Source: Candidatus Omnitrophota bacterium (GTDB lineage Bacteria > Omnitrophota > Gorgyraeia > 2-01-FULL-45-10). Taken from it: a DNA stretch of 64,000 nucleotides. A program made the translations under genes and the position numbers. The notes beneath the pieces are model-generated. The model saw only the letters and a program-made list of their open reading frames with translations. It did no database searches and was not told the origin of the DNA. The stretch lies in contig JAPLME010000011.1 in NCBI GenBank assembly GCA_026387175.1, positions 129,856 through 193,855 of the forward strand, in the 5' to 3' direction. This document shows positions 4,149 to 46,459 of this stretch, piece after piece. The first letter of the stretch is position 1. Every line of letters begins with the position of its first letter.

Positions 4149-4177
4149 TTGACTGGAGTTTGTTATTGGTCTACAAT
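4149..4177 (+). promoter_or_regulatory. Sigma70-type promoter (TTGACT-17 nt-TACAAT) for the hydrogenase operon.
   Basis: Near-consensus -35 and -10 boxes with a 17-nt spacer lie in an AT-rich gap. The TTG of the -35 box is what the ORF track uses as the start of ORF 4149. Confidence 0.6.
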
Positions 4178-4220
4178 ATATTCTCTTAATCAAATAAATT
4201 ATATGCATAATAATCTATAT

Positions 4221-5249
4221 ATGATATCCAAAAAAGACCTCTCCGACCTCTTCGGCCGGCTTGCCGCGAAGAATAGGGTTGTCGTGCCGTATGTGAAAGG
4301 CGAGAGGCTGCATTTCGGCGACTTTGATCCCAAAAAAGAGGATGTCATTGAGCTCGGTGGTATCAGGCAGAGCCAGCCGTTCAAATCGTTTATCAATCCC
4401 GCGAGAGAGAAGATGACCCCTTGCGGCAAGGATAAAAAACCCCTCATAATAGCCGGAGTAAAGGCATGCGACCTCTCAAGCCTTGTTTTGCAGGATTTCG
4501 TTTTCCAGGGCGGAGACGTCGAGGACCCGTTCTATACGGAGAATAGGAATAATACGACTATCATAGCTGTCGATTGCACTTACGCCAAGGAGACATGTTT
4601 CTGCATCGCGATGGACGGCGCCCCCTACCCGAGAAAGTTCTTCGACCTTTCGCTATCGGCCATAGATAACCATTTCCTTGTAGAGGCCGCTAGCCCGAAG
4701 GGACAGAAGATAGTCGATGATTTCAGGCCATTCTTTAAGAATCCGTCTTTACACATGGTAGATATAAGGCAGACGCTCCGCGACAGAGTGTCGAAGCAGG
4801 TGCAGGGCTTCATAGATAAGAGAGGCACTCAGAACACCTCACAGATCAAAGGGACGGTAAAGAAAAATTATGACCTGACGGAATTCTGGAAGGATATGGC
4901 GTCGACCTGCGTGGAGTGCGGGGCATGCAATCTGGTCTGCCCGACATGTCACTGTTTTCTGCTATCCGACGAGAAAGATACCTCCGGAGCGAAGCGTTTC
5001 AGGTCCTGGGACGCCTGTCTTTACGGTACGTTCGCCAGAGTGGCCGGAAATCATAATCCCAGGAGGCATCTGCATGAGCGCCTGCGCAACAGGTTCGATA
5101 AGAAGTTCGAATTCTTTCCGGAAGTGCTGAACTATTTCGCGTGCACGGGCTGCGGCCGCTGTATCGAAGCGTGCCCGGGAGATATAGATATAAGGGAAGT
5201 CTTGAAAGGCCTGGTAGTGGGAAAATGGAGCAAACCTCCGCATGATTAG
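4221..5249 (+). CDS. Fe-S cluster subunit resembling AsrA (anaerobic sulfite reductase A) and HydB (sulfhydrogenase beta). A start at 4203 is also possible.
   Basis: Cys clusters 'CVECGACNLVCPTCHC' and 'CTGCGRCIEACP' are present. The domain organisation is AsrA/HydB-like. Paired with the following HydG-like gene (8-nt overlap), the two look like HydBG-like partners. Confidence 0.6.
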   Translation: MISKKDLSDLFGRLAAKNRVVVPYVKGERLHFGDFDPKKEDVIELGGIRQSQPFKSFINPAREKMTPCGKDKKPLIIAGVKACDLSSLVLQDFVFQGGDVEDPFYTENRNNTTIIAVDCTYAKETCFCIAMDGAPYPRKFFDLSLSAIDNHFLVEAASPKGQKIVDDFRPFFKNPSLHMVDIRQTLRDRVSKQVQGFIDKRGTQNTSQIKGTVKKNYDLTEFWKDMASTCVECGACNLVCPTCHCFLLSDEKDTSGAKRFRSWDACLYGTFARVAGNHNPRRHLHERLRNRFDKKFEFFPEVLNYFACTGCGRCIEACPGDIDIREVLKGLVVGKWSKPPHD

Positions 5250-6072
5250 CTGCGCGAAGAATCCATACGCGTTTATCGACGCGGAAGTGCTGAAGGTGAC
5301 CGATGAGACGTCGAACATAAAGACGTTCACTCTGAGGCCACGCGCCGACATCTCTTTCAGGGCCGGGCAGTTCATGGAAGTGACGCTTCCGGGCATAGGA
5401 GAGGCGCCGTTTACTCCGTCCTCGAACCATAATTTTAAGGAGACGCTTGATTTCACGATAATGAGCGCCGGCCGTGTCACAAAACTCCTGCACCAGGCGA
5501 AGGCGGGCGATGTAATAGGCCTGCGCGGGCCGTATGGCGCGAAGTACCCTCTGGATGTATTCAAAGGCAAAGAGGTATTCATAGTAGGCGGCGGCGTGGG
5601 CTTGGCGCCACTGAGAGCACTGCTATATGCGTTATTCAACGACGTGAACGATTATAAGAAGATAATCTTAAGATACGGCGCCAGGTCGCCGAGCGATATA
5701 GTTTATAAGGGCGAAATAGATTCCTGGAAGACTAAGGCGGGCCACGTCGACATCATGGTCAGCTGCGACGTCGGAGACCCGTCATGGAACGGCCATGTCG
5801 GACTGGTCACCACTATACTTAAGACCGAGGGGCTGGACGTAAATAACGCTGTCGCGATAGTGTGCGGCCCGCCCATAATGATGAAGTTTGCCACATTCAA
5901 ACTTTTGGACCTCGGGTTCAAGGACAGCCAGATATACCTTTCGATGGAAAAGAATATGTCATGCGGGATCGGTAAATGCGGCCATTGCAGGATAGGGCCA
6001 TACTACGCCTGCAAGGACGGCCCCGTATTTTCTTATGACAAGATAAAAGGGCTCCCTAATATTTGGGATTGA
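5242..6072 (+). CDS. FAD/NAD(P)-binding oxidoreductase with a C-terminal [2Fe-2S] cluster. Resembles PyrK, AsrB and sulfhydrogenase gamma (HydG).
   Basis: A ferredoxin-reductase-type FAD/NAD fold is indicated by 'RAGQFMEV' and 'FIVGGGVGLAPLRALL'. The C-terminus has 'CGIGKCGHCRIGPYYAC'. Confidence 0.7.
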   Translation: MISCAKNPYAFIDAEVLKVTDETSNIKTFTLRPRADISFRAGQFMEVTLPGIGEAPFTPSSNHNFKETLDFTIMSAGRVTKLLHQAKAGDVIGLRGPYGAKYPLDVFKGKEVFIVGGGVGLAPLRALLYALFNDVNDYKKIILRYGARSPSDIVYKGEIDSWKTKAGHVDIMVSCDVGDPSWNGHVGLVTTILKTEGLDVNNAVAIVCGPPIMMKFATFKLLDLGFKDSQIYLSMEKNMSCGIGKCGHCRIGPYYACKDGPVFSYDKIKGLPNIWD

Positions 6073-6076
6073 CCAT

Positions 6077-6583
6077 ATGAAGAGACTACTCATAGATTTG
6101 GATGCATGCTCCGGATGCGATGAATGCGGGATGCTCTGCAGTTATATACAGCATCCCGGCAATAACGGTATAACGTCCCTGCGTGAATTCGGACATTTCG
6201 CTATCGTCTGCCGCAGGTGCGACGATGCCCCGTGCGTGGCCTCATGCCCGTGGGAAGCGCTGGAATTGCAGAAAGAGTACAATATGATAAAGCGCTATCT
6301 GATGCGCTGCACCTCCTGCAAATCCTGTTCCAGGGCCTGTCCGTTCGGAGTCATATATCCGGAGACGATACCGCTGGTGGCATCACGCTGCGATTACTGT
6401 TTGGGCAGGCTGAGGGCGGACGAGTATCCTGTATGCCTGCAGTCGTGCAGTCACGGCGGAATAAAATACGGCGAGTTCGAGGAGAACAAGGAAGAGAACA
6501 TATTTAAGGCATCGGAATACTTATTGATCAAGACGAACTATAAATGGGAGCGGGTCCTCGAGCTCCCGAAGAAAAAACAATAG
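6077..6583 (+). CDS. Multi-cluster 4Fe-4S ferredoxin-like electron-transfer subunit (HycB/DmsB-like).
   Basis: Several Cys motifs are present: CSGCDECGMLC, CRRCDDAPCVASCP, CTSCKSCSRACP, CDYCLGR...CLQSC. Confidence 0.65.
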   Translation: MKRLLIDLDACSGCDECGMLCSYIQHPGNNGITSLREFGHFAIVCRRCDDAPCVASCPWEALELQKEYNMIKRYLMRCTSCKSCSRACPFGVIYPETIPLVASRCDYCLGRLRADEYPVCLQSCSHGGIKYGEFEENKEENIFKASEYLLIKTNYKWERVLELPKKKQ

Positions 6584-6585
6584 AT

Positions 6586-7524
6586 ATGGACGCATTGTTA
6601 TATATATTAGCTTTTCTGGTATTTCCGGGGTTATTATTCTCCGGAATCATGGGGCTCCTTGTGGGCTGGGTTGACAGGAAAGTCACGGCCAGGCTTCAGT
6701 GGAGATCCGGTCCGCCGTGGTATCAGAACTTTCTCGATATAGCGAAGCTGGGGTTATATAAGGAGACGCTGATACCCGAGGGTGTATCGAAGGTCATGTT
6801 CTTAGGGATGCCCGTTTTGGCCCTCGCCGCTACGACTCTCGTATCTACGGTAGTCCTTGTAGCGAACATTTTTCCCATAACGGGTTTCATCGGGGATATC
6901 ATAGTCGTCATCTATCTTTTACTTATACCGCCTGTCGCGCTTATGCTCGGAGGTTTCTCGTCGGCGAACTCCGTAGCTTCCCTGGGAGCCTCCAGAGAGA
7001 TGAAGCTGATGCTCTCATATGAGCTGCCGTTTATATTGACGTTGGTGACGGTAATCATTAAGAGCGGTTACGCGATAAGGCTGGGCGAGATCATTACATA
7101 CCAGCGCATGCATGGGGATATCTTTGCGAGCCCATCGGGGTTCATAGCATTCTTTGTAATGCTCCTATGTGTGCAGGCGAAACTCGGTTTTGTCCCGTTC
7201 GATATGCCCGAGGCCGAAACGGAGATCATGTCGGGGCCATACATAGAATACTCAGGTAAGGCGCTCGCCATATTCAAATTGGCTAAAGCAATGCTCTTAT
7301 TTGTCATCCCCGTTATTTTGATAACACTCTATTTTGGCGGCATAAAGTTAAGCCTTGGAGGCCTGCTCAAGACCGTGGTAGAGTACGTATCGATACTGGT
7401 ATTGATCATTGTGATAAAGAATACGAATCCCCGCGTCAGGATAGACCATGCGGTGAAGTTTTTTTGGGGCACAGTAACAGTGGGGGCTCTTTTATCGGTG
7501 GCGCTGGCGCTTATAGGAAGATAG
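6586..7524 (+). CDS. Membrane subunit of the NuoH/HycD/EchB/MbhM family.
   Basis: Polytopic membrane protein with the 'ARLQWRSGPPW' signature. The start chosen is the ATG immediately after the upstream stop. The ORF track's 6544 start would overlap the upstream gene by 40 nt. Confidence 0.7.
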   Translation: MDALLYILAFLVFPGLLFSGIMGLLVGWVDRKVTARLQWRSGPPWYQNFLDIAKLGLYKETLIPEGVSKVMFLGMPVLALAATTLVSTVVLVANIFPITGFIGDIIVVIYLLLIPPVALMLGGFSSANSVASLGASREMKLMLSYELPFILTLVTVIIKSGYAIRLGEIITYQRMHGDIFASPSGFIAFFVMLLCVQAKLGFVPFDMPEAETEIMSGPYIEYSGKALAIFKLAKAMLLFVIPVILITLYFGGIKLSLGGLLKTVVEYVSILVLIIVIKNTNPRVRIDHAVKFFWGTVTVGALLSVALALIGR

Positions 7525-7525
7525 A

Positions 7526-7963
7526 ATGGGACTAAAAGAGAACATACTTACAAGATCGATAAATATATTCCATGTATCGAGCGGGAGCTGCAATAACTGC
7601 GATATAGAGATCATCGACAGCCTTACGCCGCGTTTCGATCTGGAGCGTTTCGGGGTGACGCTGGTCGGCAGCATAAAGCATGCGGACGCTATGCTCTGCA
7701 CCGGGAGCGCCAATCGCCTGACGATACCTATTATAAAGAAATTATATGAGCAGATGCCCAAGCCCGGCTTCGTTATAGTGTACGGCGCCTGCGGGTGTTC
7801 AAGAGGCTTATTTAAAGACAGCTATAATACAGGCGCTCCTCTCGACGAAATAATACCGGTCGATGCGTATATACCTGGGTGCCCTCCGAAGCCTGAGGCA
7901 ACCATTGCGGCACTTGTCAAATTGATAAGTAAGATAAAATCGAATAAGGCCAAAAAAATATGA
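7526..7963 (+). CDS. Group-4 [NiFe]-hydrogenase small subunit (NuoB/HycG/EchC/MbhJ-like).
   Basis: Carries the NuoB-type Cys ligands for the proximal cluster: 'GSCNNCD', 'GACGCSRG', 'GCPPKP'. Confidence 0.85.
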   Translation: MGLKENILTRSINIFHVSSGSCNNCDIEIIDSLTPRFDLERFGVTLVGSIKHADAMLCTGSANRLTIPIIKKLYEQMPKPGFVIVYGACGCSRGLFKDSYNTGAPLDEIIPVDAYIPGCPPKPEATIAALVKLISKIKSNKAKKI

Positions 7964-8427
7964 CGATAGACGATATCCTGAAGAATATAAACGACCATTT
8001 TGGCGACAGGGTGCTGAAGACGGAGAAGAAGTCCTCGAAGAGGGCATATCTCGACATATATCCTAAGGATATAGTGGATATGGCCGGATACATATTTAAA
8101 GAACTCGGCCTTCGGTTCAATATAGCCAGCGCGGTGGATGATTTCGACAGAATAGAGATACTCTACCACTTCGCGTACGATCCCTCCGGCGTAATAATAT
8201 CGGTAAGGGCAATATTGAATGATAAAGACAGCCCGTCCATCGATACCATCACCCATGTCACTAAGGCGGCGTGGTGGATAGAGAGGGAGATACATGAGCT
8301 ATTCGGCGTGGAATTTGAAGGTAACGAGGACCTGAGGACGCTCCTCTTGCCCGACGATTGGCCGAAAGGCGTTTATCCGATGAGGAAGAGCTTCGTTGTG
8401 CCTAAGAGAGATTCGAGGAAAGCATGA
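7960..8427 (+). CDS. NuoC/EchD/MbhK-like 30-kDa subunit.
   Basis: 'WWIEREIHELFGVEFEGN' is the NuoC signature. The gene overlaps both neighbours by 4 nt. Confidence 0.8.
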   Translation: MTIDDILKNINDHFGDRVLKTEKKSSKRAYLDIYPKDIVDMAGYIFKELGLRFNIASAVDDFDRIEILYHFAYDPSGVIISVRAILNDKDSPSIDTITHVTKAAWWIEREIHELFGVEFEGNEDLRTLLLPDDWPKGVYPMRKSFVVPKRDSRKA

Positions 8428-9614
8428 GCGATAATAGATCGACGATACCTGTAGGACCATACCATCCGCTCCAGGAAGAGCCGGAGTTCTGGAAACTCAT
8501 CGTGGACGGCGAGACTGTGGTCGACGTAGATGTCAGGATCGGCTATAATCACCGCGGCATAGAGAAGATTTCGGAGTCGAAGAGCTTCGACCAGTCGCTC
8601 TTCATAGTGGAGAGGATATGCGGGATATGTTCTTCGAGCCATCCGATCGCTTGCGCTCAGGCGATAGAGGACATCTGTAATATCGAGGTGCCCGAAAGAG
8701 CGCTATACATAAGGACGATCACGCAGGAGCTCGAGAGGATACATTCGCATATGCTGTGGCTGGGATTAGCGGGCCACTTCATCGGATATAATACGGTATT
8801 TATGTGGGGGTGGAAGTACAGGGAGCCGATATGCGATATCATGGAGACCATAACCGGCAACCGCCAGAATTACGCTATGCACAAAGTCGGCGGGGTCAGG
8901 CGCGATATTGAAAAGGAGCACGTATCTTACATATTGACCAGGCTCGATGAATTTTTAAAACAGCTGGATATGCTGAAGGGCGCGATCCTGGATGATCCCG
9001 TCCTCCACGCGCGGTTAAAAGGCGTCGGGATACTGACGAGAGAAGCCGCGATAGAGTATTCAGCCCTTGGCCCGGTGGCCAGGGCCTCAGGCGTCGACAT
9101 AGACGTAAGGCGCGACCATCCGTATGGCGTATACAGTAAATTGAAATGGAACGTTATCACGCAAGACGAAGGCGACGTTTTCGCTAAGGCGGTAGTGAGG
9201 ATACTCGAGATGTTCGAATCCGCCAGTATCGTGAGACAGTGCCTCGATAAGATGCCGGAGGGCCCGATAGATTCGAAACCGAAGGATATAACGCCGGGCG
9301 AGGGCATCGGAGTGATAGAAGCCCCGAGAGGCGAATGTTTCCATTATGTAAAGTGCGACGGCACAAACTCGCCTGTCCGCCACAAGATCCGCGCCCCAAC
9401 CTATATGAACTTTCCGACATTCAGGGAGACGGTCGTGGGCCAGACGGTATCGGACGCCACTATAATAATGGCGTCGATAGACCCTTGCTATTGCTGTACG
9501 GAGAGAATGGCTATCGTGGATACAAATGATAAAGAGCTGCTGAAAGCAGAAGATCTGATCAGGCTTTCGCAGGAGAAGACGCGCAGGATAAAAGAAAAGC
9601 TCGGGGTAAAATAA
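8424..9614 (+). CDS. Group-4 [NiFe]-hydrogenase large (catalytic) subunit (NuoD/HycE/EchE/MbhL-like). It carries a C-terminal extension.
   Basis: The N-terminal Ni-Fe ligand motif 'RICGICSSSH' and the C-terminal 'DPCYCCTER' motif are present. About 35 aa follow the C-terminal motif, consistent with processing by the HycI protease encoded downstream. Confidence 0.85.
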   Translation: MSDNRSTIPVGPYHPLQEEPEFWKLIVDGETVVDVDVRIGYNHRGIEKISESKSFDQSLFIVERICGICSSSHPIACAQAIEDICNIEVPERALYIRTITQELERIHSHMLWLGLAGHFIGYNTVFMWGWKYREPICDIMETITGNRQNYAMHKVGGVRRDIEKEHVSYILTRLDEFLKQLDMLKGAILDDPVLHARLKGVGILTREAAIEYSALGPVARASGVDIDVRRDHPYGVYSKLKWNVITQDEGDVFAKAVVRILEMFESASIVRQCLDKMPEGPIDSKPKDITPGEGIGVIEAPRGECFHYVKCDGTNSPVRHKIRAPTYMNFPTFRETVVGQTVSDATIIMASIDPCYCCTERMAIVDTNDKELLKAEDLIRLSQEKTRRIKEKLGVK

Positions 9615-9618
9615 GAGA

Positions 9619-11424
9619 ATGTTCAACAACCCGCTTTTAATACTGGTAACGGCGCCGATCGCGGCAGGTTTTCTCGCCCTCGCTGCGACTGACAGGTTTA
9701 AGACTGCCGCGAAACTTTTGGCGGGTATCGTCACGGCCGCCTGCCTTGCCGGCAGTATACACATTTTCATTAAAAAACCGGTCAGCTGGTATTGTCTCGA
9801 CGCGGTCATCTTACGCGCCGATAATCTCTCCGCTTTCATCGCTATGGCGGTCAGCTTATTTGCCTTTCTTATAACGGTATATTCGTTCGGTTTTACGGAG
9901 AGATTGTTCGGCAGATATTTCGGTTATCTCTTGATGACATTGGGCGCGTCATTGGGTGTCTTATTCGCCAATAACTTTATTGTCATGATCGTCTTCTGGG
10001 GATTTCTGGCGTTGATGCTCTACTTGCTGGTCAACCTGGAGGGGACGCAAGAAGCGGCCCTCTCAAGCCGCAAGGCGCTCGTCATCATCGGCGGGACAGA
10101 CGCTGTAATGATATTAGGTATAGCGCTGATATGGTCTGTCACGGGGACTCTCTCGATGGATAAGGTGCGTCTTCCTATGACAAACGCGCTTACCTACATC
10201 GCGTATTTTTCGATAGTGATGGCGAGTTTCGCGAAGGCGGGAGCGATGCCGTTCCACTCATGGCTTCCCGATGTGGCAGAGGATGCAGCAGCTTCCGTAT
10301 CCGCGTACCTGCCGGCTTCGCTCGATAAGCTACTGGGTATATACCTTCTCGCGCGTGCGTCACTTGATCTCTTTATCACGACGAAAGCGTCTAACCTTGT
10401 GCTCGTGATGGTAGGGGCATTCACGATAATAATGGCTGTAATGATGGCGCTAGTTCAGCATAATTATAAGAGGCTGCTCGGATATCATGCTGTTTCTCAG
10501 GTAGGATACATGATCCTCGGCATAGGCACCGGCACGGCGGTAGGTATTGCGGGCGGACTTTTTCACATGCTCAATAACGCGATCTATAAATCCTGCCTTT
10601 TCCTTACAGCCGGCGCAGTAGAAAAGAGAACGAAGACTATGGACCTTGATAAGCTGGGCGGACTTGCGAAATTCATGCCGCTGACGTTTATAGCTTGTCT
10701 TGTAGCGTCGCTTTCCATATCGGGCATACCGCCGTTCAACGGCTTCGTCTCCAAGTGGATGATATATCAGGGTATTATCGAATCTGCCGGATCCGGCGGT
10801 AAACTCTGGGTGGTGTGGCTAAGCGCGGCAATGTTCGGAAGCGCGCTCACGATAGCAAGTTTCATGAAGCTTCTGCATGCGGCCTTCCTGGGGCGCTGCT
10901 CGGACGGTGTTAAGGATGTCCGTGAAGTCTCGCCGTCGATGTATATTCCGATGCTTATGCTGGCCGCGATATGCGTCCTCTTCGGCGTATTCGCTTTCCA
11001 GCTGCCGATCCCGTTATTCATAGTGCCTTCCATAGCAGGGAGCTTAGCATATATAGGGACGTGGGGCTCGATACTCGCCACGGTGCTTATCTTAGCGGGA
11101 TTGGTATTGGGTCTCTTTATATATTGGCTGTTGAAGTCCGGAAGCTTCCGGGTTGTCGATAACTTCGTGGGCGGGACGCCTTCGGAAAAATTGCCCCGCA
11201 TCTCCGGAACGGAGTTTTATAATACGATAAAAGATATAGCGCCCATAGGCAGGATATATAAGGAAGAAGAGTCCGGGAATCTGGATCTTTATAACGTCGG
11301 CCTTAAAGCGGTTAACTTTTTCACAGCGCCGCTCCGGCGCCTGCATAACGGAGTGCTGCCGACTTATCTGGTCTGGTGTTTCCTGGGCATGATAGCGATG
11401 TTTCTGTTTCTAGTAGTAAGATAG
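9619..11424 (+). CDS. MrpA/NuoL/MbhH-family antiporter-like membrane subunit (601 aa).
   Basis: 'HSWLPDVAEDAAASVSAY' and 'HAVSQVGYM' motifs place it in the proton-pumping complex I subunit 5 / Mrp family. Confidence 0.8.
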   Translation: MFNNPLLILVTAPIAAGFLALAATDRFKTAAKLLAGIVTAACLAGSIHIFIKKPVSWYCLDAVILRADNLSAFIAMAVSLFAFLITVYSFGFTERLFGRYFGYLLMTLGASLGVLFANNFIVMIVFWGFLALMLYLLVNLEGTQEAALSSRKALVIIGGTDAVMILGIALIWSVTGTLSMDKVRLPMTNALTYIAYFSIVMASFAKAGAMPFHSWLPDVAEDAAASVSAYLPASLDKLLGIYLLARASLDLFITTKASNLVLVMVGAFTIIMAVMMALVQHNYKRLLGYHAVSQVGYMILGIGTGTAVGIAGGLFHMLNNAIYKSCLFLTAGAVEKRTKTMDLDKLGGLAKFMPLTFIACLVASLSISGIPPFNGFVSKWMIYQGIIESAGSGGKLWVVWLSAAMFGSALTIASFMKLLHAAFLGRCSDGVKDVREVSPSMYIPMLMLAAICVLFGVFAFQLPIPLFIVPSIAGSLAYIGTWGSILATVLILAGLVLGLFIYWLLKSGSFRVVDNFVGGTPSEKLPRISGTEFYNTIKDIAPIGRIYKEEESGNLDLYNVGLKAVNFFTAPLRRLHNGVLPTYLVWCFLGMIAMFLFLVVR

Positions 11425-11434
11425 AGGATATCAA

Positions 11435-11971
11435 GTGGAGATAAATCTTTTACTGTTATTCATGATAGCAGCGGCTGTGATCGCGGTCGCGGTTAAGGAC
11501 CTTCTCTCGAGCGTTATAGCGGTGGGGGCGGTCGGCATAGGACTATCGATGGCATTCCTTGTAATGAAGGCGCCCGACCTGGCCATCATGCAGCTCGTCG
11601 TCGAGATCCTCAGCCTGATAATACTTATCCGCGCTACCATAAGAAAGGACCTTCCTTTCAGCACGTCAGGCAGATGGGCCTTTAATACGGTCTCCACGGT
11701 TATTTTTCTGGCGGTCTTCCTGGCCTTCGCGTATTTTTCATTTGCCGGCATACATAAGTTCGGCAGCCCGCTTATGAGGGTATCACAGGAATATTTGAGC
11801 CAGGCTCAGGCGAGGACGGGGATCCAAAATGTTATAGCGGCGATAACGCTTAATTACCGCGCGATCGATACGCTCGGCGAGGCTGCGGCGCTCTTTACGG
11901 CAGTTGTCGGCGTTCTGACCGTTGCGCGTAAAATCTGGCGAAGGGAAGACGCTAAATATGAATCCCGTTAA
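11435..11971 (+). CDS. MrpB-like (DUF4040 / MnhB N-terminal type) membrane protein.
   Basis: Small hydrophobic protein inside the Mrp block. The assignment rests on its position and hydropathy. Confidence 0.5.
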   Translation: MEINLLLLFMIAAAVIAVAVKDLLSSVIAVGAVGIGLSMAFLVMKAPDLAIMQLVVEILSLIILIRATIRKDLPFSTSGRWAFNTVSTVIFLAVFLAFAYFSFAGIHKFGSPLMRVSQEYLSQAQARTGIQNVIAAITLNYRAIDTLGEAAALFTAVVGVLTVARKIWRREDAKYESR

Positions 11972-12368
11972 ATCACCTGAGAAGGGGATGACGCTGATAG
12001 TAAAGGCGGTGACGAAGCTTACGCTCGGTTTCATCCTCCTATACGGCATATATATAACGTTGAACGGCCATATAGCTCCCGGCGGCGGGTTTGTCGGAGG
12101 AGTTATAATGGCGCTCGCGCTCGTCCATATAATGCTCGCTTTCGGCAAGGAGATATCTCTGAAATGGCTGCATGCTTATACCTTGCGGATAACCATGGCT
12201 GCCGCGGTACTCTTATTTTTATGCGGGGTCATGCTGGGATATCCGAAATGGATATTTAAGAATGAATTTGTTCTGCCTCTTTGCGAGATGGTCATTGTGG
12301 GCGCGGGGCTTTTTGCCATATTCGTAGCGTTGGTGCTGGCTTCAAAAACGGATAAACAAGCGGAGTAG
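11958..12368 (+). CDS. mrpB: MrpB/MnhB Na+/H+ antiporter subunit B.
   Basis: Contains the 'HIAPGGGFVGGVIMA' MnhB signature. The start is taken at the ATG at 11958. The ORF track's upstream extension from 11922 is unlikely. Confidence 0.7.
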   Translation: MNPVKSPEKGMTLIVKAVTKLTLGFILLYGIYITLNGHIAPGGGFVGGVIMALALVHIMLAFGKEISLKWLHAYTLRITMAAAVLLFLCGVMLGYPKWIFKNEFVLPLCEMVIVGAGLFAIFVALVLASKTDKQAE

Positions 12369-12379
12369 GGAATTAAGAT

Positions 12380-12718
12380 ATGATCACATATTTCTTATGT
12401 CTGGTCCTCTTTGCGATAGGGCTATTCTGCGTTGTCAGGAAGAGGAATATTATAAAGATAATCATAGGTATAGGTATCATGGAATATGCCATCAATCTCT
12501 TCTTCGTCCTGGTGGGCTATCGCACTCATGGCCGCTCGCCGATATTCGCGCGCGACCAGATGGTTACCAATATGGTCGATCCCCTGCCGCAGTCGGTGGC
12601 GCTTACAGCGATCGTGATCAGCCTTTCCGTTACGCTGATGCTGGTGGCTGTCGCGATAAGGATCTATGAGAGATACGGCACATTTGACATAACGAAGATA
12701 AACAGGCTAAAAGGATAG
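12380..12718 (+). CDS. mrpC: MrpC/MnhC (NuoK-like) subunit.
   Basis: Three-helix 112-aa protein with 'DPLPQSVALTAIVI'. Confidence 0.75.
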   Translation: MITYFLCLVLFAIGLFCVVRKRNIIKIIIGIGIMEYAINLFFVLVGYRTHGRSPIFARDQMVTNMVDPLPQSVALTAIVISLSVTLMLVAVAIRIYERYGTFDITKINRLKG

Positions 12719-12720
12719 CG

Positions 12721-14214
12721 ATGGCACCATTTTTTCTAATAATACCTCTTGCTGCAGCGTTCATAATGACGCTTATATCAAGGACGGACGAGCGCATCAG
12801 GGACGTTTTTGCTATCCTTGTGGCTATTTCACTTCCGGTGCTGTCCATATTAACATTGATGAAGGTGGCAATACCTGCGGGCTCCGTTCTTGTCCATAGG
12901 ATGTCGGGTTTCATGCCGCCGGCAGGGATAGCTTTTGTCGTCGACGGCCTCTCGGCCTTCATGCTCGTCACCGTGAACTCGGTCGCGCTCTTTGTGATCG
13001 TCTATTCGTCCGGCTACATGAAGAAGTATACCGACAAATGGAAATTCTATGCGTTATTCTTCATGATGATCTCCGGAATAAACGGTGTCCTGATAGCTTC
13101 AGATATATTCAACCTGTATGTATTTATGGAGATCGCGGCTATAGCGGCGTACTTCCTTGTGGCGTTCGGCACAGGGGCGGAGGAACTCGAGGCCTCATTC
13201 AAGTATGCGATAATGGGCACCGTCGCCTCCGCGTTCATATTGCTGGGCATAGCCTTCCTCTATGGCTACACTTCGACGCTTAATATGATGGATATGGCTT
13301 CTGTGATATCGACGCTGCCCCAGGTGCGGACCATACAATTTATCAGTGTGCTCTTTCTTATGGGCTTCGGCCTTAAAGCGGCGCTGGTGCCATTCCACGC
13401 ATGGCTTGCGTATGCGCACTCATCTGCTCCGGCACCGGTATCCGCGATGCTGTCGGGCGTCCTGATAAAAGCCCTCGGTATATATGCCATAGCGAGGATA
13501 TTCTTCAGCGTCTTCGGTATGAGCGCCGAGATCTGCCAGATACTCATTGCGCTTGGCGTGCTCTCTATGATCGTCGGGGCCATACTCGCGTTCGGCCAGT
13601 CGGATATTAAAAAAATCTTCGCGTATTCTACAGTGAGCCAGATAGGATATATCTCTCTGGCGTTGGGAGTGGCTACGCCGCTCGCGTTCGTCGGGGCGAT
13701 CTTCCACCTATTTAACCATAGTGCGGTCAAATCTCTTCTGTTCCTGAATTCAGGCTCGATAGAACACATGACAGGGACCAGGGAGCTTAGCAGGATATCG
13801 GGTGTGGTTAAAAACGCGCCGGTTACCGGCTATACGACGCTTTTGGGAGCTCTATCGATCTCAGGCGTGCCGCCATTCGGCGGGTTCTGGTCGAAGCTCA
13901 TAATAATATTCGCCTGTATCCAGGCGGGCCATCCGTTTCTTGCCCTCATCGCCGTTCTGGTAAGCGTTATGACACTGGCTTATTATTTTGTCTCGATGAC
14001 GGGCGTCCTTTTCGGAGTCAAAGCGGATGCCGCAGGTTTCGTGAATAAGATCCATCCGGCGATGAAGGCCGGTGTCATTGCCATGGCCCTTATAGTGCTC
14101 TTTGCGCCGCTTGCGCTTCTTCCGGATGTTAAAAAGATATTGATTGACGGCGCGGTCTCGGTCCTCGTAAACGGAAGGGCTTACGCGGATATGATGCTTG
14201 GAGCGATTAAATGA
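12721..14214 (+). CDS. mrpD: MrpD/NuoN/NuoM-family antiporter-like subunit.
   Basis: 14-TM protein with 'PFHAWLAYAHSSAPAPVSA' and 'STVSQIGYI' motifs. Confidence 0.8.
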   Translation: MAPFFLIIPLAAAFIMTLISRTDERIRDVFAILVAISLPVLSILTLMKVAIPAGSVLVHRMSGFMPPAGIAFVVDGLSAFMLVTVNSVALFVIVYSSGYMKKYTDKWKFYALFFMMISGINGVLIASDIFNLYVFMEIAAIAAYFLVAFGTGAEELEASFKYAIMGTVASAFILLGIAFLYGYTSTLNMMDMASVISTLPQVRTIQFISVLFLMGFGLKAALVPFHAWLAYAHSSAPAPVSAMLSGVLIKALGIYAIARIFFSVFGMSAEICQILIALGVLSMIVGAILAFGQSDIKKIFAYSTVSQIGYISLALGVATPLAFVGAIFHLFNHSAVKSLLFLNSGSIEHMTGTRELSRISGVVKNAPVTGYTTLLGALSISGVPPFGGFWSKLIIIFACIQAGHPFLALIAVLVSVMTLAYYFVSMTGVLFGVKADAAGFVNKIHPAMKAGVIAMALIVLFAPLALLPDVKKILIDGAVSVLVNGRAYADMMLGAIK

Positions 14215-14717
14215 TATTTAACGGTATTCTATTTATTCTCTGGTTCGCTGTATGGATGCTGCTATCGTGGCCGCCCGACGCGAAAAATATTATATCAGGC
14301 GTCCTGGTTTCATTATTTGTTACATTCATGACGAGCGATATCATGCATGTAGGGAGCGCCAAAGAGAGAAGAGCTATAACTTTTTTAGGGCGTCTGGCAT
14401 GTCTGGGGTGGTTCATCTATTACATCTTTGTCTTCCTATGGGAATGCTTTAAGGCTAATATCGATGTCGCTTACAGGGTTATACATCCGGATCTTCCCAT
14501 ATCCCCCGGCACGATAAAAGTCAAAGTCGCCCTCAAGAGCGATATAGGCCTGACATTCCTGGCAAACTCCATAACGCTCACTCCCGGTACGACAAGCGTC
14601 GATGTGGATAAGGAACAGGGTTACCTCTATGTACATATGTTATGTGTGAAGGAAGACCGCGGCAGGCTTAAGATAGTAGATAAATTTGAAAATATACTAA
14701 AGAGGATATTCGAATAA
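14211..14717 (+). CDS. mrpE: MrpE/MnhE subunit.
   Basis: 'ITLTPGTTSVD' is the MnhE signature. Confidence 0.7.
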   Translation: MIFNGILFILWFAVWMLLSWPPDAKNIISGVLVSLFVTFMTSDIMHVGSAKERRAITFLGRLACLGWFIYYIFVFLWECFKANIDVAYRVIHPDLPISPGTIKVKVALKSDIGLTFLANSITLTPGTTSVDVDKEQGYLYVHMLCVKEDRGRLKIVDKFENILKRIFE

Positions 14718-14721
14718 ATTT

Positions 14722-15081
14722 ATGAAGAGGCTTCACTACTTTGCGGGGCTGATAGCCATTATCATAGTTACGGCCGTCATACTCTTCTGTCCGATCGGAT
14801 CGAGCCTCAGGTGGCAGTCGGGATTCCTGGGCCGCGCGTTTTTATGGCTACTGGTTTCCGCAAGCCTGTGCTTATACAGGGTTATGCGGGGCCCGACGGC
14901 TCCGGACAGGGTCGTGGCGATAGATATACTGGGCATTCTGATCGTGGGATTTTGCGCGCTATTAAGCATCGCTACCGGGAGGGATTGGTATCTGGATATA
15001 GGCATAGCGTGGGCGCTTCAGAGTTTTATCGGTATAATGGCCCTATCCAAATACCTGGAAGGAAAAGATTTCGATGAATAA
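14722..15081 (+). CDS. mrpF: MrpF/MnhF subunit.
   Basis: 'MRGPTAPDRVVAID' is the MnhF signature. Confidence 0.7.
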   Translation: MKRLHYFAGLIAIIIVTAVILFCPIGSSLRWQSGFLGRAFLWLLVSASLCLYRVMRGPTAPDRVVAIDILGILIVGFCALLSIATGRDWYLDIGIAWALQSFIGIMALSKYLEGKDFDE

Positions 15082-15409
15082 TACAGCAGGCATTATATTG
15101 ATCGTTGTCGGGCTTATATTCGATTTTTTCGGATGCCTGGGGCTGATACGCTTTCCTGATGTCTATAATCGCCTTCAGGCCGCGACCAAGTGTATTACTC
15201 TCGGTACGTGCGGTATACTCTTAGGGCTGGTATGCTTTAAAGGGCTTTCCGCCACCGGCATAAAAGCGCTGCTCTGTCTCATATTCATAATACTTACCGC
15301 TCCGGTCTCTGCCCATGCGCTTGCGAGAGCGGCATACCGCTCCGGCGTGAAACCCTGGGCGGGTACGGTCGTTGACGAGTACGGTAAGGATATGGATAAA
15401 ATCGGGTGA
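15074..15409 (+). CDS. mrpG: MrpG/MnhG subunit.
   Basis: 'GLIRFPDVYNRLQAATK' is the MnhG signature. Confidence 0.7.
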   Translation: MNNTAGIILIVVGLIFDFFGCLGLIRFPDVYNRLQAATKCITLGTCGILLGLVCFKGLSATGIKALLCLIFIILTAPVSAHALARAAYRSGVKPWAGTVVDEYGKDMDKIG

Positions 15410-15416
15410 GGTGACT

Positions 15417-16019
15417 ATGAATAAAGAAGAGATACGCGAACAGGTCATAGTTATGGCGGATAAGGCTTATCAGATGCTGGAGTTTGTGGAGAAGGGATTT
15501 ATGGAGCATAAGACCGAATTTCTGACCGGCGCGATGGAGCGGGAGAGGGAGCTCAATGAGATGGAGAAGTCCCTCACCCAGAATGTGCTCGATCTTTCGA
15601 AGTCAGCCAAATCCGATAAAGAGAAGAAAGAGCTCGTTATTTTGGAGCAGGTTACCGAGACGCTTGAGAGGATGGGCGATGAGGCCGCGAACCTGGTGGA
15701 GAGGATCGAGATAAAGAACGCCGAGCACCTCCTTTTTAGCGACCTGGGCGTGGCGCAGTTCAATGAGACATATGGCGTTATGAAAAAGTCCGCCGATATG
15801 ATGCGCACCTTTTTGAAAGGCAGGAGCGAGGAATTAAAGGACCGCGTGGTGGATAATGGATTCCAGGTCAAGGCGCTTGTCCAGCGCTACAGGGAAGAAC
15901 ATATGGAACGTCTTGTAAGGGGTATATGCACGCCGATAGCGGCCAACATGTATTTCGACATGCTGGATTTCACCGGTAACCTGGCGCGGCACGCTTCGGC
16001 AATCGTTAAATTATTCTAA
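15417..16019 (+). CDS. PhoU-like / DUF47-like regulatory protein embedded in the hydrogenase operon.
   Basis: A GGTGAGGTGA RBS precedes the ATG at 15417. The protein is an all-helical, coiled-coil-rich ~200 aa with PhoU-like periodicity. The family call is tentative. Confidence 0.4.
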   Translation: MNKEEIREQVIVMADKAYQMLEFVEKGFMEHKTEFLTGAMERERELNEMEKSLTQNVLDLSKSAKSDKEKKELVILEQVTETLERMGDEAANLVERIEIKNAEHLLFSDLGVAQFNETYGVMKKSADMMRTFLKGRSEELKDRVVDNGFQVKALVQRYREEHMERLVRGICTPIAANMYFDMLDFTGNLARHASAIVKLF

Positions 16020-16030
16020 GGCGGTAATAT

Positions 16031-16648
16031 ATGAAGTATCCTAAGCTGAGGGAATTGAAAGAGGCGATCATCGCGCTTGTGAAAGGGCCCTACACCTCCG
16101 ATTATCCTTCGGAGCCGCATCACCCCGCGAAGAGATTTCGCGGAAAGCCGGAATATTCGAATGAAGGCTGCATAGCCTGCACCGCCTGCGCCGCCGTATG
16201 TCCGGTGAGGGCAATCGAATTCCGGGATGTCGTTACTAAAAATAAGGCTACAAGGAAGATGATGCTGCATCTGGACGAGTGCCATTACTGCGGCCAGTGC
16301 AGCGCTCTTTGCACCACGCGTGAGGATGTCCCACCCGGTATAAAGCATACCACCGAGTTCGATCTTGCGGGTTTCGACCGCGCCTCGATGATCTCGGCTA
16401 CCGATGAAAAAGAGCTGGCGTTATGTGAAATATGCGGCGATGTCATTACCGCTAAGGCCCACCTGGCCTGGATCGCCAAAAAACTCGGCCCGCTCGCGTT
16501 CTCGAACCCCACTCTATTCATATCGTCCCTTAAAGGGATGGGATTTGCCGAAGATGTCGCTCAAGGTGCTAAAGAATATGTCTTAAGATCCGACAGGATC
16601 AAGATCCTCTGCTCAAAATGCAGAAGGGTAACGACCATTGAACGATAG
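16031..16648 (+). CDS. NuoI/EchF/MbhN-like 2x[4Fe-4S] subunit.
   Basis: Two ferredoxin-type cluster motifs, 'CIACTACAAVCP' and 'CHYCGQCSALC', and a position consistent with MbhN. Confidence 0.75.
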   Translation: MKYPKLRELKEAIIALVKGPYTSDYPSEPHHPAKRFRGKPEYSNEGCIACTACAAVCPVRAIEFRDVVTKNKATRKMMLHLDECHYCGQCSALCTTREDVPPGIKHTTEFDLAGFDRASMISATDEKELALCEICGDVITAKAHLAWIAKKLGPLAFSNPTLFISSLKGMGFAEDVAQGAKEYVLRSDRIKILCSKCRRVTTIER

Positions 16649-17132
16649 TAAACCCGAACTCCACGATCTAAAAGCGGAACTAAATAACCGGATAAAGGGC
16701 AGGGTCACGATAGCCGGCATAGGCAATATAATGCGCGGCGATGACGGGCTGGGCCCGAAGCTCATCGAATTATTAAAGGCCCGCAACGTCAACGCGGGCC
16801 TCTTCGATTGCGGTACGGCGCCTGAGAACTATATATTCCCGATGCTTAAGAGCCTGTGCGACACGCTTATACTCGTGGATGCCGCTGATATGTCTCTCGA
16901 GCCGGGCGCCTCCAGAGTTCTCGACGTAGATAATATCGTGAATATCAGTTTCTCCACTCACAGCCCGTCTCCCAGGCTCTTCATAGACCTTCTGAAGATG
17001 GGCAGGGAAGACCTTAATATCTTCATAATATCCGTTCAGCCCAAAAATACGTCTTTAGGGATCCCGTTGAGCGAAGAGGTGCTTAAGGGGCTCGAAGCAC
17101 TGACGGGCGTTATTTTAGAAACCTTAACCTGA
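16638..17132 (+). CDS. hycI: Hydrogenase maturation endopeptidase (HycI/HyaD family). TTG start.
   Basis: 'IAGIGNIMRGDDGLGPK' is the GxGNxxxxDDGxG protease signature. Confidence 0.75.
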   Translation: MNDSKPELHDLKAELNNRIKGRVTIAGIGNIMRGDDGLGPKLIELLKARNVNAGLFDCGTAPENYIFPMLKSLCDTLILVDAADMSLEPGASRVLDVDNIVNISFSTHSPSPRLFIDLLKMGREDLNIFIISVQPKNTSLGIPLSEEVLKGLEALTGVILETLT

Positions 17133-17133: not shown

Positions 17134-18522
17134 ATGCCGCATGCCATACCGAAACGCGTTATAGAAGAGATACCTGACCCGTCGGAACCGCTCGATATAT
17201 TCAGATCGATAAGGCGCCGTCCATATAGCTTTTTCCTGGACAGCACGTGCGATCCCAAAAAACTCGGCCGCTTCTCATTCATCGGATGCGATCCGTTTCT
17301 GGTATTAAAATCTAAAGGCGATTATGTAATTTTAGAGCACGATGGCCGGACAGAAGAGCTGAAGGCAAATCCATTTCTGGTCCTGAAGAAGCTATTGAAA
17401 AAATATAAGGCCGTCAATTATTCGAAAGAGCTCCCGTTTATCGGGGGCGCCGTCGGATATTTCTCTTACGACCTGAAGAGCTTTATAGAGGATCTACCCG
17501 GCACAGCGAAAGACGATCTTAAGCTGCCCGACTGCATTCTCGGTTTTTACGATTCCATAATAATATATGATAATCTGAAGAAGCGTTGTTATGCCTCAAA
17601 TCTCGGCATATCAAAAAGGCCTTCAGTAAATTTAAAAGATATGGTATGCCCCCCCGCCGGTAGCGCAACATATCGAAACTTGAGATCCAATTTTTCAAAA
17701 CAGTCGTATATCGAGGCTGTCAGGAAGGCAAAAGAATATATCAGGAAGGGAGATATATATCAGGTCAATATTTCCCAGAGGTTTCAGGCAGAGCTCTTCG
17801 GAGATCCGTTCGATCTATATGTGAGGCTCAGGGCCTGCAGTCCGGCGCCGTTCGGGGCGTACTTAAATTTTGGTGATGTAAAGTTTCTTAGCTCATCACC
17901 TGAGAGGTTTTTATTAAAGCGGGGAGATTATATTGAGGCCCGTCCTATAAAGGGAACGAGGCCGCGCGGGCGATCCGCCGCAAGCGACAAAGCGCTGGAG
18001 ATAGAATTAAAGAATAGCCCTAAGGATATGGCCGAGCACATAATGATAGTGGACCTGGAGCGTAACGACCTGGGAAGAGTATGTAAATACGGTTCGGTTC
18101 ATCCTGCGGAATCCATGATAATCGAAAAGTATGCCAATGTCTTCCATATGGTATCTACGGTGGCGGGCACTCTCAAACAAAACATGGATGCCGTCGATTG
18201 TTTGGCTGCTACATTTCCGGGAGGCTCTATAACAGGCGCGCCGAAGATACGCTCGATGGAGATAATAGATGAGCTGGAAAGTGTGAGAAGGTTTGCCTAC
18301 ACCGGCGCTATCGGATATATAGGTTTCGACGGGAATATGGATACGTCGATAGTGATAAGGACCTTCATAGTAAAGGGTAAAGACGTCTATTTTCAGGTGG
18401 GCGGTGGCATCGTGGCCGATTCTGAGCCCGAGGAAGAATATGAAGAGACGCTTCATAAGGCTGCGGGGCTCATGCAGGCGCTTAATGCGGGATCGAAAAA
18501 TAGGGAGCCAGTCTTCGTATGA
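17134..18522 (+). CDS. pabB: Aminodeoxychorismate synthase component I (chorismate-binding enzyme, PabB/TrpE family).
   Basis: Chorismate-binding domain motifs are present (GDIYQVNISQRF, ERNDLGRVC, PGGSITGAPKIRSMEII). The adjacent class-IV aminotransferase (PabC-like) favours PabB over TrpE. Confidence 0.7.
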   Translation: MPHAIPKRVIEEIPDPSEPLDIFRSIRRRPYSFFLDSTCDPKKLGRFSFIGCDPFLVLKSKGDYVILEHDGRTEELKANPFLVLKKLLKKYKAVNYSKELPFIGGAVGYFSYDLKSFIEDLPGTAKDDLKLPDCILGFYDSIIIYDNLKKRCYASNLGISKRPSVNLKDMVCPPAGSATYRNLRSNFSKQSYIEAVRKAKEYIRKGDIYQVNISQRFQAELFGDPFDLYVRLRACSPAPFGAYLNFGDVKFLSSSPERFLLKRGDYIEARPIKGTRPRGRSAASDKALEIELKNSPKDMAEHIMIVDLERNDLGRVCKYGSVHPAESMIIEKYANVFHMVSTVAGTLKQNMDAVDCLAATFPGGSITGAPKIRSMEIIDELESVRRFAYTGAIGYIGFDGNMDTSIVIRTFIVKGKDVYFQVGGGIVADSEPEEEYEETLHKAAGLMQALNAGSKNREPVFV

Positions 18523-19367: not shown

Positions 19368-19380
19368 TAAAATAAGGACC

Positions 19381-46431: not shown

Positions 46432-46459
46432 TGTCTTGCAATGAAAAGTGAGACAGGAC

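Follow-up and report, generated by a model that had tools for sequence, protein, structure and literature searches.

The closest described counterparts of the gene string considered here, which lies in a 64-kb stretch of DNA (the window) from a metagenome-assembled genome (MAG) of a Candidatus Omnitrophota bacterium, are the 16-subunit 'Hun' operons named by Glass et al. in a study of Atribacteria-dominated methane hydrate sediments (bioRxiv 10.1101/536078). In that account, the carriers are Atribacteria, Firmicutes, Omnitrophica, Elusimicrobia, Bacteroidetes and Kosmotoga; HunAB are similar to AsrAB, HunC is an Fe-S protein, HunEFGP make up the NiFe module, HunDHILK the P-module and HunIJKLMNO the Na-module. 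The large subunit HunG falls into HydDB group 4g, yet it is distant from other 4g sequences, and its metal site carries a diagnostic signature, CGIC...CYCC instead of CGIC...CxxC. The same authors proposed ferredoxin as the electron donor of Hun, and HydDB annotates group 4g as 'ferredoxin-coupled (putative)'. Similar clusters have been reported under other descriptions: an AsrA/AsrB/CooF 'oxidoreductase module' stands beside an Mrp-linked hydrogenase in Saganbacteria, whose enzyme has its closest relatives in Omnitrophica and Zixibacteria (Matheus Carnevali 2019, PMC6349859), and a 'Mbh-Mrp-oxidoreductase type' group-4 hydrogenase occurs in Elusimicrobia (Meheust 2020, 10.1101/765248). Mrp-linked 'group 4g' hydrogenases have also been found in Omnitrophota MAGs (Williams et al.), where each MAG from Ace Lake carries one hydrogenase only, either of the Mrp-linked type or of type 3b, 3d or A3, and a list of hydrogenases that goes back to Schut et al. 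and was adopted by Pollo et al. (PMC5674127) includes the Kosmotoga olearia cluster Kole_0560-0575. Our literature search, the coverage of which lacked most subscription journals, returned one paper that uses the Hun name and no paper that proposes an NAD(P)H donor for this cluster type.

Judged by its genes and motifs, the region at 4203-17132 (window numbering, used throughout) is a complete copy of the published Hun complex, a membrane-bound, Mrp-linked group-4 [NiFe]-hydrogenase. It comprises 18 tightly packed co-directional genes, all on the plus strand (open reading frame (ORF) list, with Pfam and NCBIfam assignments), which are separated by -50 to +11 nucleotides and map one-to-one in their order onto the published module scheme. 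The Hun identity follows from the match of the gene order A to P and of the CGIC...CYCC signature to the published description; all Hun traits tested were found, namely the HunABC opening, the signature, the D-G core, the Mrp-like subunits H-O and the Fe-S subunit P. The first-pass annotation of this DNA had listed the genes in the same order and every one of them is present (ORFs, Pfam, NCBIfam), but its suggestion that the architecture is new does not hold, as the arrangement has already been published as Hun with Omnitrophica named among the carriers (Glass et al., bioRxiv 10.1101/536078). The architecture is known, and the anatomy of the cluster is unsurprising. In fact, dozens of species spread over more than 10 phyla have the same gene order, which places the gene string far beyond chance. 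The hunG product is 100% identical to an NCBI protein from a 'Candidatus Omnitrophica bacterium' MAG, and hundreds of homologues with identities of 80-96% bear the same label among the database matches.

The hydrogenase core is encoded by hunD (6544-7524), for a NuoH/MbhM-like membrane subunit (Pfam NADHdh, E=6e-62) whose true start may, judging from the translation, be ATG 6586; hunE (7526-7963), for a NuoB-like small subunit with one [4Fe-4S] cluster (Oxidored_q6); hunF (7960-8427), for a NuoC-like subunit (Complex1_30kDa); and hunG (8424-9614), for the [NiFe] large subunit (Complex1_49kDa, NiFeSe_Hases). The NiFe L1 and L2 motifs together with NuoB-, NuoC-, NuoH- and NuoI-like partners (Pfam) identify the enzyme as a member of group 4. 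The L1 motif of HunG is RICGICSSSH and the L2 motif is DPCYCCTER, which is followed by a C-terminal tail of 35 residues; Cys66, Cys69, Cys355 and Cys358, the NiFe-binding CxxC pairs of L1 and L2, are invariant in 49 orthologues. Similarly, Cys22, Cys25, Cys89 and Cys119 of HunE, which belong to the single [4Fe-4S] cluster, are invariant in 58 sequences. The exact motif DPCYCCTER is present in 120 of the 120 closest proteins, compared with 4 of 150 diverse group-4 representatives. HunG shares this motif with the K. olearia large subunit, to which it is 56% identical (BLASTP), and the nearest 50%-identity cluster is the one that holds K. olearia ACR79287.1, with a cluster representative that is 57% identical to HunG. 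The HunG clade is discrete: identities are at least 56% inside it and at most about 47% outside it (among 50%-identity cluster representatives). Among solved structures, HunG scores 311 bits with MbhL and 289 bits with HycE. These scores and the identity gap bear out the earlier expectation that the large subunit stands apart from ordinary Mbh and formate hydrogenlyase (FHL) enzymes; together with the HycF-like HunP and the CYCC signature, they rule out membership in ordinary Mbh, FHL or complex I.

The C-terminal tail of the large subunit and the accompanying protease were once singled out as distinguishing traits. The protease gene is the last of the string (16638-17132), and it encodes a HycI-type large-subunit maturation endopeptidase (Pfam HycI; NCBIfam hydrogenase maturation protease, 105 bits, over the cut-off). 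However, wherever the L2 motif was identifiable among the 150 group-4 representatives, the L2 arginine is in most cases followed by 7-54 residues, so that the tail sets nothing apart; the deposited MbhL chain ends at that arginine. As for the layout that was said to differ from archaeal Mbh, the Mrp genes do follow the core here, and this is the conserved layout of Hun. The formate- and CO-linked clusters of Thermococcus likewise have the hydrogenase core placed before the Mrp genes.

The part of the complex that may be informative about its electron donor is the pair of genes at its front. The hunA gene (4203-5249) encodes an AsrA/HydB-like Fe-S protein (Pfam Fer4_22, E=4.8e-30), and hunB (5242-6072) encodes an AsrB/HydG/PyrK-like flavoprotein for FAD, NAD(P)H and [2Fe-2S] binding (FAD_binding_6, NAD_binding_1, DHODB_Fe-S_bind). 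The NCBIfam scores of HunA are 145 bits for ShyB, 128 bits for HydB and 118 bits for AsrA, all of which lie far under the equivalog cut-offs. Its best match in the PDB is the beta chain of Pyrococcus furiosus sulfhydrogenase I (9nez_B, 112 bits, E=3.8e-31), and that of HunB is the gamma chain of the same enzyme (9nez_C, 181 bits, E=2.5e-52), with identities of roughly 30-40% in the printed alignments; the HydB/HydG-like label originally given to the two genes is thus well founded. Hydrogenases of types 3b, 3d and A3 are NAD(P)-linked, and the NADP(H)-linked half of this group 3b enzyme consists of its beta and gamma subunits. HunA contains 15 cysteines that are invariant in 80 sequences, which make up two CxxCxxCxxxCP motifs plus seven more, four of them N-terminal. 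HunB shows the complete motif set of the FNR/PyrK type, that is, the FAD motif, GGxGxxP, CGP and a C-terminal Cx4Cx2C...C. Its FAD site (PGxGEAPFTPSS and GxVT), its nucleotide motif GGGxGxAPLR, its CGP motif and its four [2Fe-2S] cysteines are invariant or nearly so in 71 orthologues, and the NAD(P)-binding motifs that had been predicted for 5242-6072 are therefore both present and conserved. In addition, position 148 of HunB, just after strand beta-2, is Lys or Arg in all 71 orthologues and is mostly followed by Thr or Ser. This position aligns with an Arg of the sulfhydrogenase gamma chain, and the region resembles the GCRRS motif of NADPH-cytochrome P450 reductase; the basic residue may be a hint of a preference for NADPH.

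The proteins that would connect HunAB with the hydrogenase resemble those of FHL. The hunC gene (6077-6583) encodes a CooF/HycB-type polyferredoxin (Pfam Fer4_11) with 16 cysteines, enough for four [4Fe-4S] clusters, which are 89-100% conserved in 66 sequences; its PDB matches are HycB3 of the hydrogen-dependent CO2 reductase (7qv7_A, 47 bits) and HycB of FHL (7z0s_B, 37 bits). The hunP gene (16031-16648) encodes a HycF/NuoI-like subunit with two [4Fe-4S] clusters (Fer4_7), which is matched by the NCBIfam model for the FHL iron-sulfur subunit (87 bits) and scores 56 bits with Escherichia coli HycF (7z0s_F) vs 40 bits with MbhN. The C-terminal extension of HunP contains two extra CxxC pairs, Cys132/135 and Cys194/197, which are kept in the 3 available sequences and suggest an additional metal site. 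By analogy with FHL, HunAB would occupy the place of FdhF and dock via HunC and HunP.

Based on these resemblances, HunA, HunB and HunC may form a three-protein input module that extends the peripheral arm of the hydrogenase. The FAD of HunB would exchange hydride with NAD(P)H, and the electrons would move on through the [2Fe-2S] cluster of HunB to the Fe-S clusters of HunA, then across HunC, the HycB/CooF-like protein with four [4Fe-4S] clusters, HunP, the HycF-like protein with two clusters, and HunE, the NuoB-like protein with a single one, before they would finally reach the NiFe site of HunG, where 2H+ and H2 would be interconverted. We infer this order of wiring, HunB-HunA-HunC-HunP-HunE-HunG, by analogy with the related enzymes.

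The input module appears to travel with the enzyme. HunA was used to scan one genome per species (GTDB set), and the resulting 80 loci, with identities of 43-82%, were annotated with the window proteins. HunB adjoins HunA in 67 of the 71 loci with at least 1 kb of downstream DNA, and a group-4 large subunit lies downstream in 47 of the 50 loci with at least 5 kb; the order HunA-B-C-D-E-F-G-H-I-J-K-L-M-N-O is held throughout these loci. By record title, the carriers belong to Omnitrophota, Methylomirabilales, Binatia, Spirochaetota, Sumerlaeota, Nitrospirota, Atribacterota, Fermentibacteria and Desulfococcus, and a full Hun cluster is found in a cultured organism, Desulfosarcina variabilis str. 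Montpellier (L071; NZ_CP159846, at about 6.089-6.110 Mb). In a mirror-tree comparison of pairwise identities over 48 taxa, HunA and HunG correlate with r=0.93 and HunB and HunG with r=0.89, which indicates that the module has been inherited together with the enzyme.

A few loci depart from this arrangement. In the sister-clade locus L081 (1666-11209), HunAB are present and the large subunit is 59% identical to HunG, a 535-residue protein with a molybdopterin-binding domain lies between HunB and HunC, the NuoC-like protein is fused to the large subunit, and CYSC replaces CYCC; the locus represents the 'Mo variant' that both Glass et al. and Matheus Carnevali et al. mention. In L051 (9369-13582; Omnitrophota bin81, with a chromosome of 1.14 Mb), a gene for the repressor Rex and a HunA-like gene stand beside NadA and NadC, and hydrogenase genes are absent around the pair within 9369-13582; either the pair is a remnant or the HunA-like protein is put to another use in this small genome. 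In the Latescibacterota locus L052 (9242-18120), Rex, a HunA-like protein, MrpE, a 448-residue Pyr_redox_2/Pyr_redox_dim flavoprotein and further Mrp-type subunits are encoded, and neither HunB nor a recognisable NiFe large subunit was found within reach of the locus. A similar HunA-like/Mrp arrangement is seen in L044, and clusters of the L052 type may represent a different NAD(P)H-linked Mrp complex.

Another finding that touches on the donor concerns regulation in relatives. A gene for a Rex-type repressor (Put_DNA-bind_N plus CoA_binding) stands directly 5' of hunA in 20 of 72 loci, all of them outside the close clade of the window, and in some of these the Rex gene overlaps hunA. A Rex box (TTGTGAA-N4-TTCACAA, with at most 3 mismatches) was found upstream of rex-hunA in 10 of the 20 Rex-headed loci (L035, L037, L043, L050, L051, L054, L057, L068, L075 and L076, with a perfect box in L068) vs 39 of 2000 background windows (about 2%). 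Rex senses NADH/NAD+, and its linkage to hunA fits an NAD(H)-linked role, though it is non-specific. Rex control of the window copy itself is unsupported, as neither a Rex homologue nor a Rex box is found near the promoter; a TTGT-N9-ACAA repeat in the promoter spacer was also rejected as a Rex box, for its spacing is wrong and the spacer is unconserved in relatives.

Taken together, motif conservation, structural homology, co-inheritance, the FHL-like connectors and the Rex linkage favour an NAD(P)H port, and we put the chance that NAD(P)H is the physiological partner of Hun through HunB at about even. This reading goes beyond, and partly against, the only published interpretation, in which the donor is ferredoxin. 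The fuller proposal, that Hun is an ion-translocating NAD(P)H:H+ oxidoreductase, a proton-reducing counterpart of complex I in which an FNR/PyrK-type pair was recruited onto an Mbh/Mrp scaffold independently of NuoEFG, with the PhoU-fold protein as a subunit or assembly factor and with no ferredoxin involved, is possible but somewhat less likely than not, and we advance it tentatively.

In such an enzyme, much as in Mbh, FHL and complex I, H+/Na+ movement would be coupled to turnover where HunG, HunE and HunD meet, and the ion path would run through HunD, the antiporter-like HunH and HunL and the small Mrp subunits. HunH (9619-11424) is an MrpA/NuoL-like antiporter-type subunit of 601 residues (Pfam Proton_antipo_M) and is full-length, with the NCBIfam NuoL model matched over positions 6-611 of 615; HunL (12721-14214) is an MrpD/NuoM/N-like antiporter-type subunit (Proton_antipo_M, Proton_antipo_N). 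The smaller subunits are HunI (11435-11971), which is of the MbhD/MbhE type and corresponds to the C-terminal domain of MrpA (Pfam MbhD, MbhE; NCBIfam DUF4040, MrpA C-terminal), the MnhB/MrpB-like HunJ (11922-12368; Pfam MnhB; NCBIfam), the MrpC/NuoK-like HunK (12380-12718; Oxidored_q2), the MrpE-like HunM (14211-14717; MNHE), the MrpF-like HunN (14722-15081; MrpF_PhaF) and the MrpG-like HunO (15074-15409; PhaG_MnhG_YufB). Two MrpB-like genes had been read here before; the MnhB-domain protein at 11922-12368 answers to that description, but the other, at 11435-11971, is the MbhD/MbhE-type protein.

The standard potentials (E0') of NAD(P)+/NAD(P)H and H+/H2 are -320 mV and -414 mV. As the two couples are near equilibrium, the enzyme would work in both directions. 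At 1 bar H2, the reduction of NAD(P)+ by H2 is favourable by about -18 kJ per 2 electrons, which could pay for the export of roughly one ion. At about 10 Pa H2, where E' is about -296 mV, an NADPH pool at about -370 mV could drive H2 evolution with the export of at most one ion. If NADH is the reductant, or if H2 is higher, the evolution of H2 would have to be paid for with the ion gradient. At very low H2 and with a reduced NADPH pool, the enzyme could evolve H2 and export at most about 1 ion per 2 electrons; at higher H2, the gradient could be spent to push the electrons of NAD(P)H onto protons; alternatively, H2 oxidation could yield NAD(P)H with ion export. The presence of HunH, HunL and the full Mrp set is easier to reconcile with an enzyme that is reversible and linked to the gradient than with one that pumps strongly in the forward direction.

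Several observations weigh against an NAD(P)H donor, and the energetics are the weakest part of the case for it and the strongest argument for ferredoxin. Under standard conditions, the formation of H2 from NAD(P)H is endergonic, which makes a pump with two antiporter-like subunits hard to explain for H2 evolution and leaves the direction of catalysis uncertain; this difficulty is eased if H2 is very low or if the pump works in reverse. A ferredoxin could also feed electrons directly into the long Fe-S wire, above all at HunC. Both a Rex gene and a Rex box are missing near the promoter in the window, and in other anaerobes Rex controls ferredoxin-dependent hydrogenases too. In addition, the Hun family is so far without a purified or assayed member. 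Finally, the K. olearia cluster is weakly expressed during H2-producing growth on pyruvate, with values of about 30-200 in the expression table, and Kole_0567, at the hunH position, is annotated as a pseudogene (PMC5674127 supplement); for these two reasons K. olearia is maybe not the best experimental model.

If ferredoxin were the donor, HunABC would be an Fe-S antenna only, reduced ferredoxin would yield H2 with Na+/H+ export as in Mbh, and the flavin/NAD site of HunB would have a structural or regulatory role or act as a minor side port. On general grounds, the reaction from reduced ferredoxin to H2 is exergonic enough for two antiporter-like pumps, and HunC-type polyferredoxins and HycF-like subunits are plausible docking sites for ferredoxin. 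A gene for a ferredoxin with a NIL domain lies directly 5' of hunA in 23 of the 72 loci, including close relatives of the window. Ferredoxin is also the donor proposed in the only paper that names Hun (bioRxiv 10.1101/536078) and, putatively, the one assigned to group 4g in HydDB. On the other hand, GGGxGxAPLR, CGP and the FAD motif are invariant in 71 orthologues from many phyla, which would be surprising if the site were vestigial; Mbh, which has been characterised, works without a HunAB module, and the nearest solved counterpart of that module is the NADP(H) half of a sulfhydrogenase. The published premise that AsrAB is fed by ferredoxin is itself doubtful. AsrB is described as an NADH-linked flavoprotein. 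We regard a ferredoxin-dependent Hun as somewhat unlikely.

A third arrangement would make the wire a multi-port redox hub that joins three sites, one for ferredoxin, one on HunB for NAD(P)(H) and one on HunG for H+/H2; the ferredoxin, NAD(P)H and H2 pools would then be balanced, only fluxes through the NiFe site would be coupled to ions, and a fourth, formate-like substrate would be added in the variants with a Mo subunit. In line with this, the wire has many Fe-S clusters, and a Mo protein between HunB and HunC is found in L081 and in the variants of Glass et al. and of Saganbacteria, which implies that the wire accepts additional catalytic modules; moreover, in the Latescibacterota variant, another kind of NAD(P)H flavoprotein (Pyr_redox_2) is the partner of a HunA-like protein in an Mrp cluster. 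However, there is no evidence of a ferredoxin site and no flavoprotein of the bifurcating type, HunB being similar to the simple PyrK and to the sulfhydrogenase gamma chain, and the scheme is more complex than the data require. Such a hub is rather improbable.

That HunAB might be a reductase for sulfur, polysulfide or sulfite, with Hun as a membrane-bound 'sulfhydrogenase', is very improbable: HunA and HunB do score against the AsrA, AsrB, ShyB and ShyC models, and the sulfhydrogenase beta chain has historically been linked to S0 reduction, but no AsrC/siroheme subunit is encoded in the operon or among the window ORFs scanned, the AsrA and AsrB scores fall under their cut-offs (118 vs 323 bits for TIGR02910; 224 vs 289 bits for TIGR02911), which rules out a sulfite reductase AsrABC, and the NiFe cysteines are intact, unlike those of the sulfur-reducing Mbs.

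Several observations place hunAB and the hydrogenase genes in one transcription unit. A sigma-70-type promoter lies at 4149-4177 on the plus strand, with the -35 hexamer TTGACT (4149-4154), a 17-nucleotide spacer and the -10 hexamer TACAAT (4172-4177), and it matches the consensus at 10 of 12 positions (consensus scan); the TTGAC...TAnAAT pair can be aligned immediately 5' of hunA in about 30 close relatives. The TTG at 4149 is ruled out as a start codon, as it is part of this conserved -35 hexamer. Since HunA begins with MxNNLYTIxKKDL in relatives, the start of hunA is most likely ATG 4203 (MHNNLYMISKKDL), and the start previously placed at 4221 is an internal in-frame ATG. The gap between hunB and hunC is only 4 nucleotides, and the RNA-seq transcription-unit table of K. 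olearia groups Kole_0568-0575, a block that extends from the gene for the large subunit to those for the AsrB- and AsrA-like proteins (Pollo 2017 supplement, PMC5674127). The promoter before hunA, the short gap and this table agree with the earlier proposal that hunAB lie within the hydrogenase unit; the gap, the conserved synteny and the table rule out an independent asrAB/pyrK unit. No convincing terminator was found inside the operon, where the stems are weak (24 found vs 14.9 +/- 4.1 expected).

An extra gene that is not part of the published scheme lies between hunO and hunP (15417-16019, probably starting at ATG 15417) and encodes a PhoU-fold protein (Pfam PhoU). No PDB match was obtained by sequence, and the AlphaFold2 model (pLDDT, the predicted local distance difference test, 69) shows a six-helix fold with TM (template-modelling) scores of 0.82-0.87 to PhoU crystal structures. 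For its metagenomic relatives (40-87% identity; L084-L160), the identifiable neighbours are always Hun genes. In 34 loci the gene is found in the gap between MrpG and the HycF-like subunit, as in the window, and in 16 loci between the large subunit and MrpA/MrpD. It is unmentioned in the text of Glass et al. (bioRxiv 10.1101/536078), and judging by its neighbourhoods it is apparently a conserved, Hun-specific gene.

The flanks of the operon are partly shared with close relatives. Upstream, on the plus strand, lie the 3' end of hypE (75-602; Pfam), a gene for a UPF0280/PRK04334 protein (606-1328; NCBIfam NF003323, 302 bits, without a Pfam match) and a gene for a 135-residue ferredoxin with a NIL domain and two [4Fe-4S] clusters (1892-2299; Pfam). 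In the clade of the window, hypF-C/hypD/hypE, UPF0280 and the NIL-ferredoxin are the upstream neighbours, and HypF-C, HypD and HypE were identified in L001; the NIL-ferredoxin could be a redox partner or a maturation factor. Between the ferredoxin gene and the hun promoter of the window lie a uracil-DNA-glycosylase-family gene (2303-2821, plus strand) and a gene for a Pif1-like superfamily 1 helicase (2800-4116, plus strand), and as the ferredoxin gene abuts the promoter in relatives, these two genes look like a local insertion.

Downstream, the string does not stop at 17132, as had been assumed, but continues after a 1-nucleotide gap with genes for a PabB/TrpE-family aminodeoxychorismate/anthranilate synthase-like protein and a class-IV aminotransferase (PabC/IlvE-like) at 17134-19367 on the plus strand. 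The close Omnitrophota clade retains these Pab-like genes in the same place (L087, L088, L103, L110 and L134 are examples), and they may be co-transcribed with the hydrogenase. They are followed by a weak hairpin at about 19377-19390 and then by a strong promoter-like site at 19446. Further along the plus strand, a large ORF at 19538-24094 encodes 1518 residues with Macro and DNA-methylase-type domains, and two more very large ORFs, at 42276-46235 and 46448-58987, encode 1319 and 4179 residues.

Enzymes of the Hun type are carried by uncultured anaerobes of sediment and groundwater (Omnitrophota, Atribacterota, Nitrospirota, Latescibacterota, Spirochaetota) and by Desulfosarcina, and they are routinely annotated as ferredoxin-dependent 'group 4g'. 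If HunAB do serve as a port for NAD(P)H, the metabolism of these organisms would have to be modelled differently, as electrons could pass from NAD(P)H to H2 or in reverse with the ion gradient as the thermodynamic lever; energy-starved fermenters of the subsurface would interconvert NAD(P)H, H2 and ion-motive force directly and without ferredoxin, which would be a long-sought solution for the disposal of NADH in syntrophic and fermentative life. The hypothesis is testable in cultured carriers, namely D. variabilis with a full cluster and Kosmotoga spp. with related clusters, and 9NEZ provides a structural template.

In comparison with known systems, the window copy shares the 16 core genes, their order and the CGIC...CYCC signature with the Hun of Glass et al., from which it differs in that no Mo-domain protein lies between hunB and hunC and that a PhoU-fold gene lies between hunO and hunP. 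The clusters of Saganbacteria and Elusimicrobia likewise have AsrA-, AsrB- and CooF-like genes beside an Mrp-linked group-4 hydrogenase, but they carry an FdhH-like molybdopterin subunit that is absent here; because of that subunit, their authors read AsrAB as electron carriers that serve it. The Mbh of P. furiosus (group 4d; PDB 6CFW) is the best solved match of HunG and has in common with Hun the NuoB/C/D/H/I-like core, the Mrp-type membrane subunits and the Na+/H+-coupled H2 chemistry. However, Mbh contains one antiporter-like subunit and no HunABC-type module, whereas Hun contains two and the module; according to the literature, the 14-gene mbhA-N cluster has the Mrp-like genes first and its enzyme takes electrons directly from ferredoxin, whereas in Hun the Mrp genes follow the core, and HunP is nearer to HycF than to MbhN.

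The FHL of E. coli (group 4a; PDB 7Z0S) feeds a soluble input enzyme through a HycB/CooF-type polyferredoxin onto a HycF-type subunit, as Hun is proposed to do, and both have a C-terminal tail on the large subunit and HycI. In FHL and the CODH- (carbon monoxide dehydrogenase) and Fdh-linked enzymes of Thermococcus (group 4b), the input is FdhF or CODH, whereas in Hun it would be an FNR-type flavoprotein pair; no molybdopterin or CODH gene was found among the window ORFs scanned. Sulfhydrogenase I of P. furiosus (group 3b; PDB 9NEZ) has its cysteines and FAD/NAD(P)/[2Fe-2S] motifs in common with HunA and HunB, but its beta/gamma pair works with cytoplasmic group-3 alpha and delta subunits, whereas HunAB would be linked to a membrane-bound group-4 enzyme via HunC. 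Consistent with this, Hun is no group 3b enzyme, as its scores are only 53 bits for ShyA and 34 bits for HydA (NCBIfam) and its hydrogenase subunits are of the NuoD/NuoB type. Finally, respiratory complex I has NuoB/C/D/H/I/K/L/M-type subunits that are homologous to those of Hun, in which an NAD(P)H module at the tip is proposed as well. If this is true, an Mbh/Mrp-type machine has gained a nucleotide dehydrogenase head a second time and independently, which bears on complex I's evolution. The NuoD homologue of Hun keeps the NiFe cysteines and would reduce protons, not quinone, and its nucleotide module is of the FNR/PyrK type, unrelated to NuoEFG.

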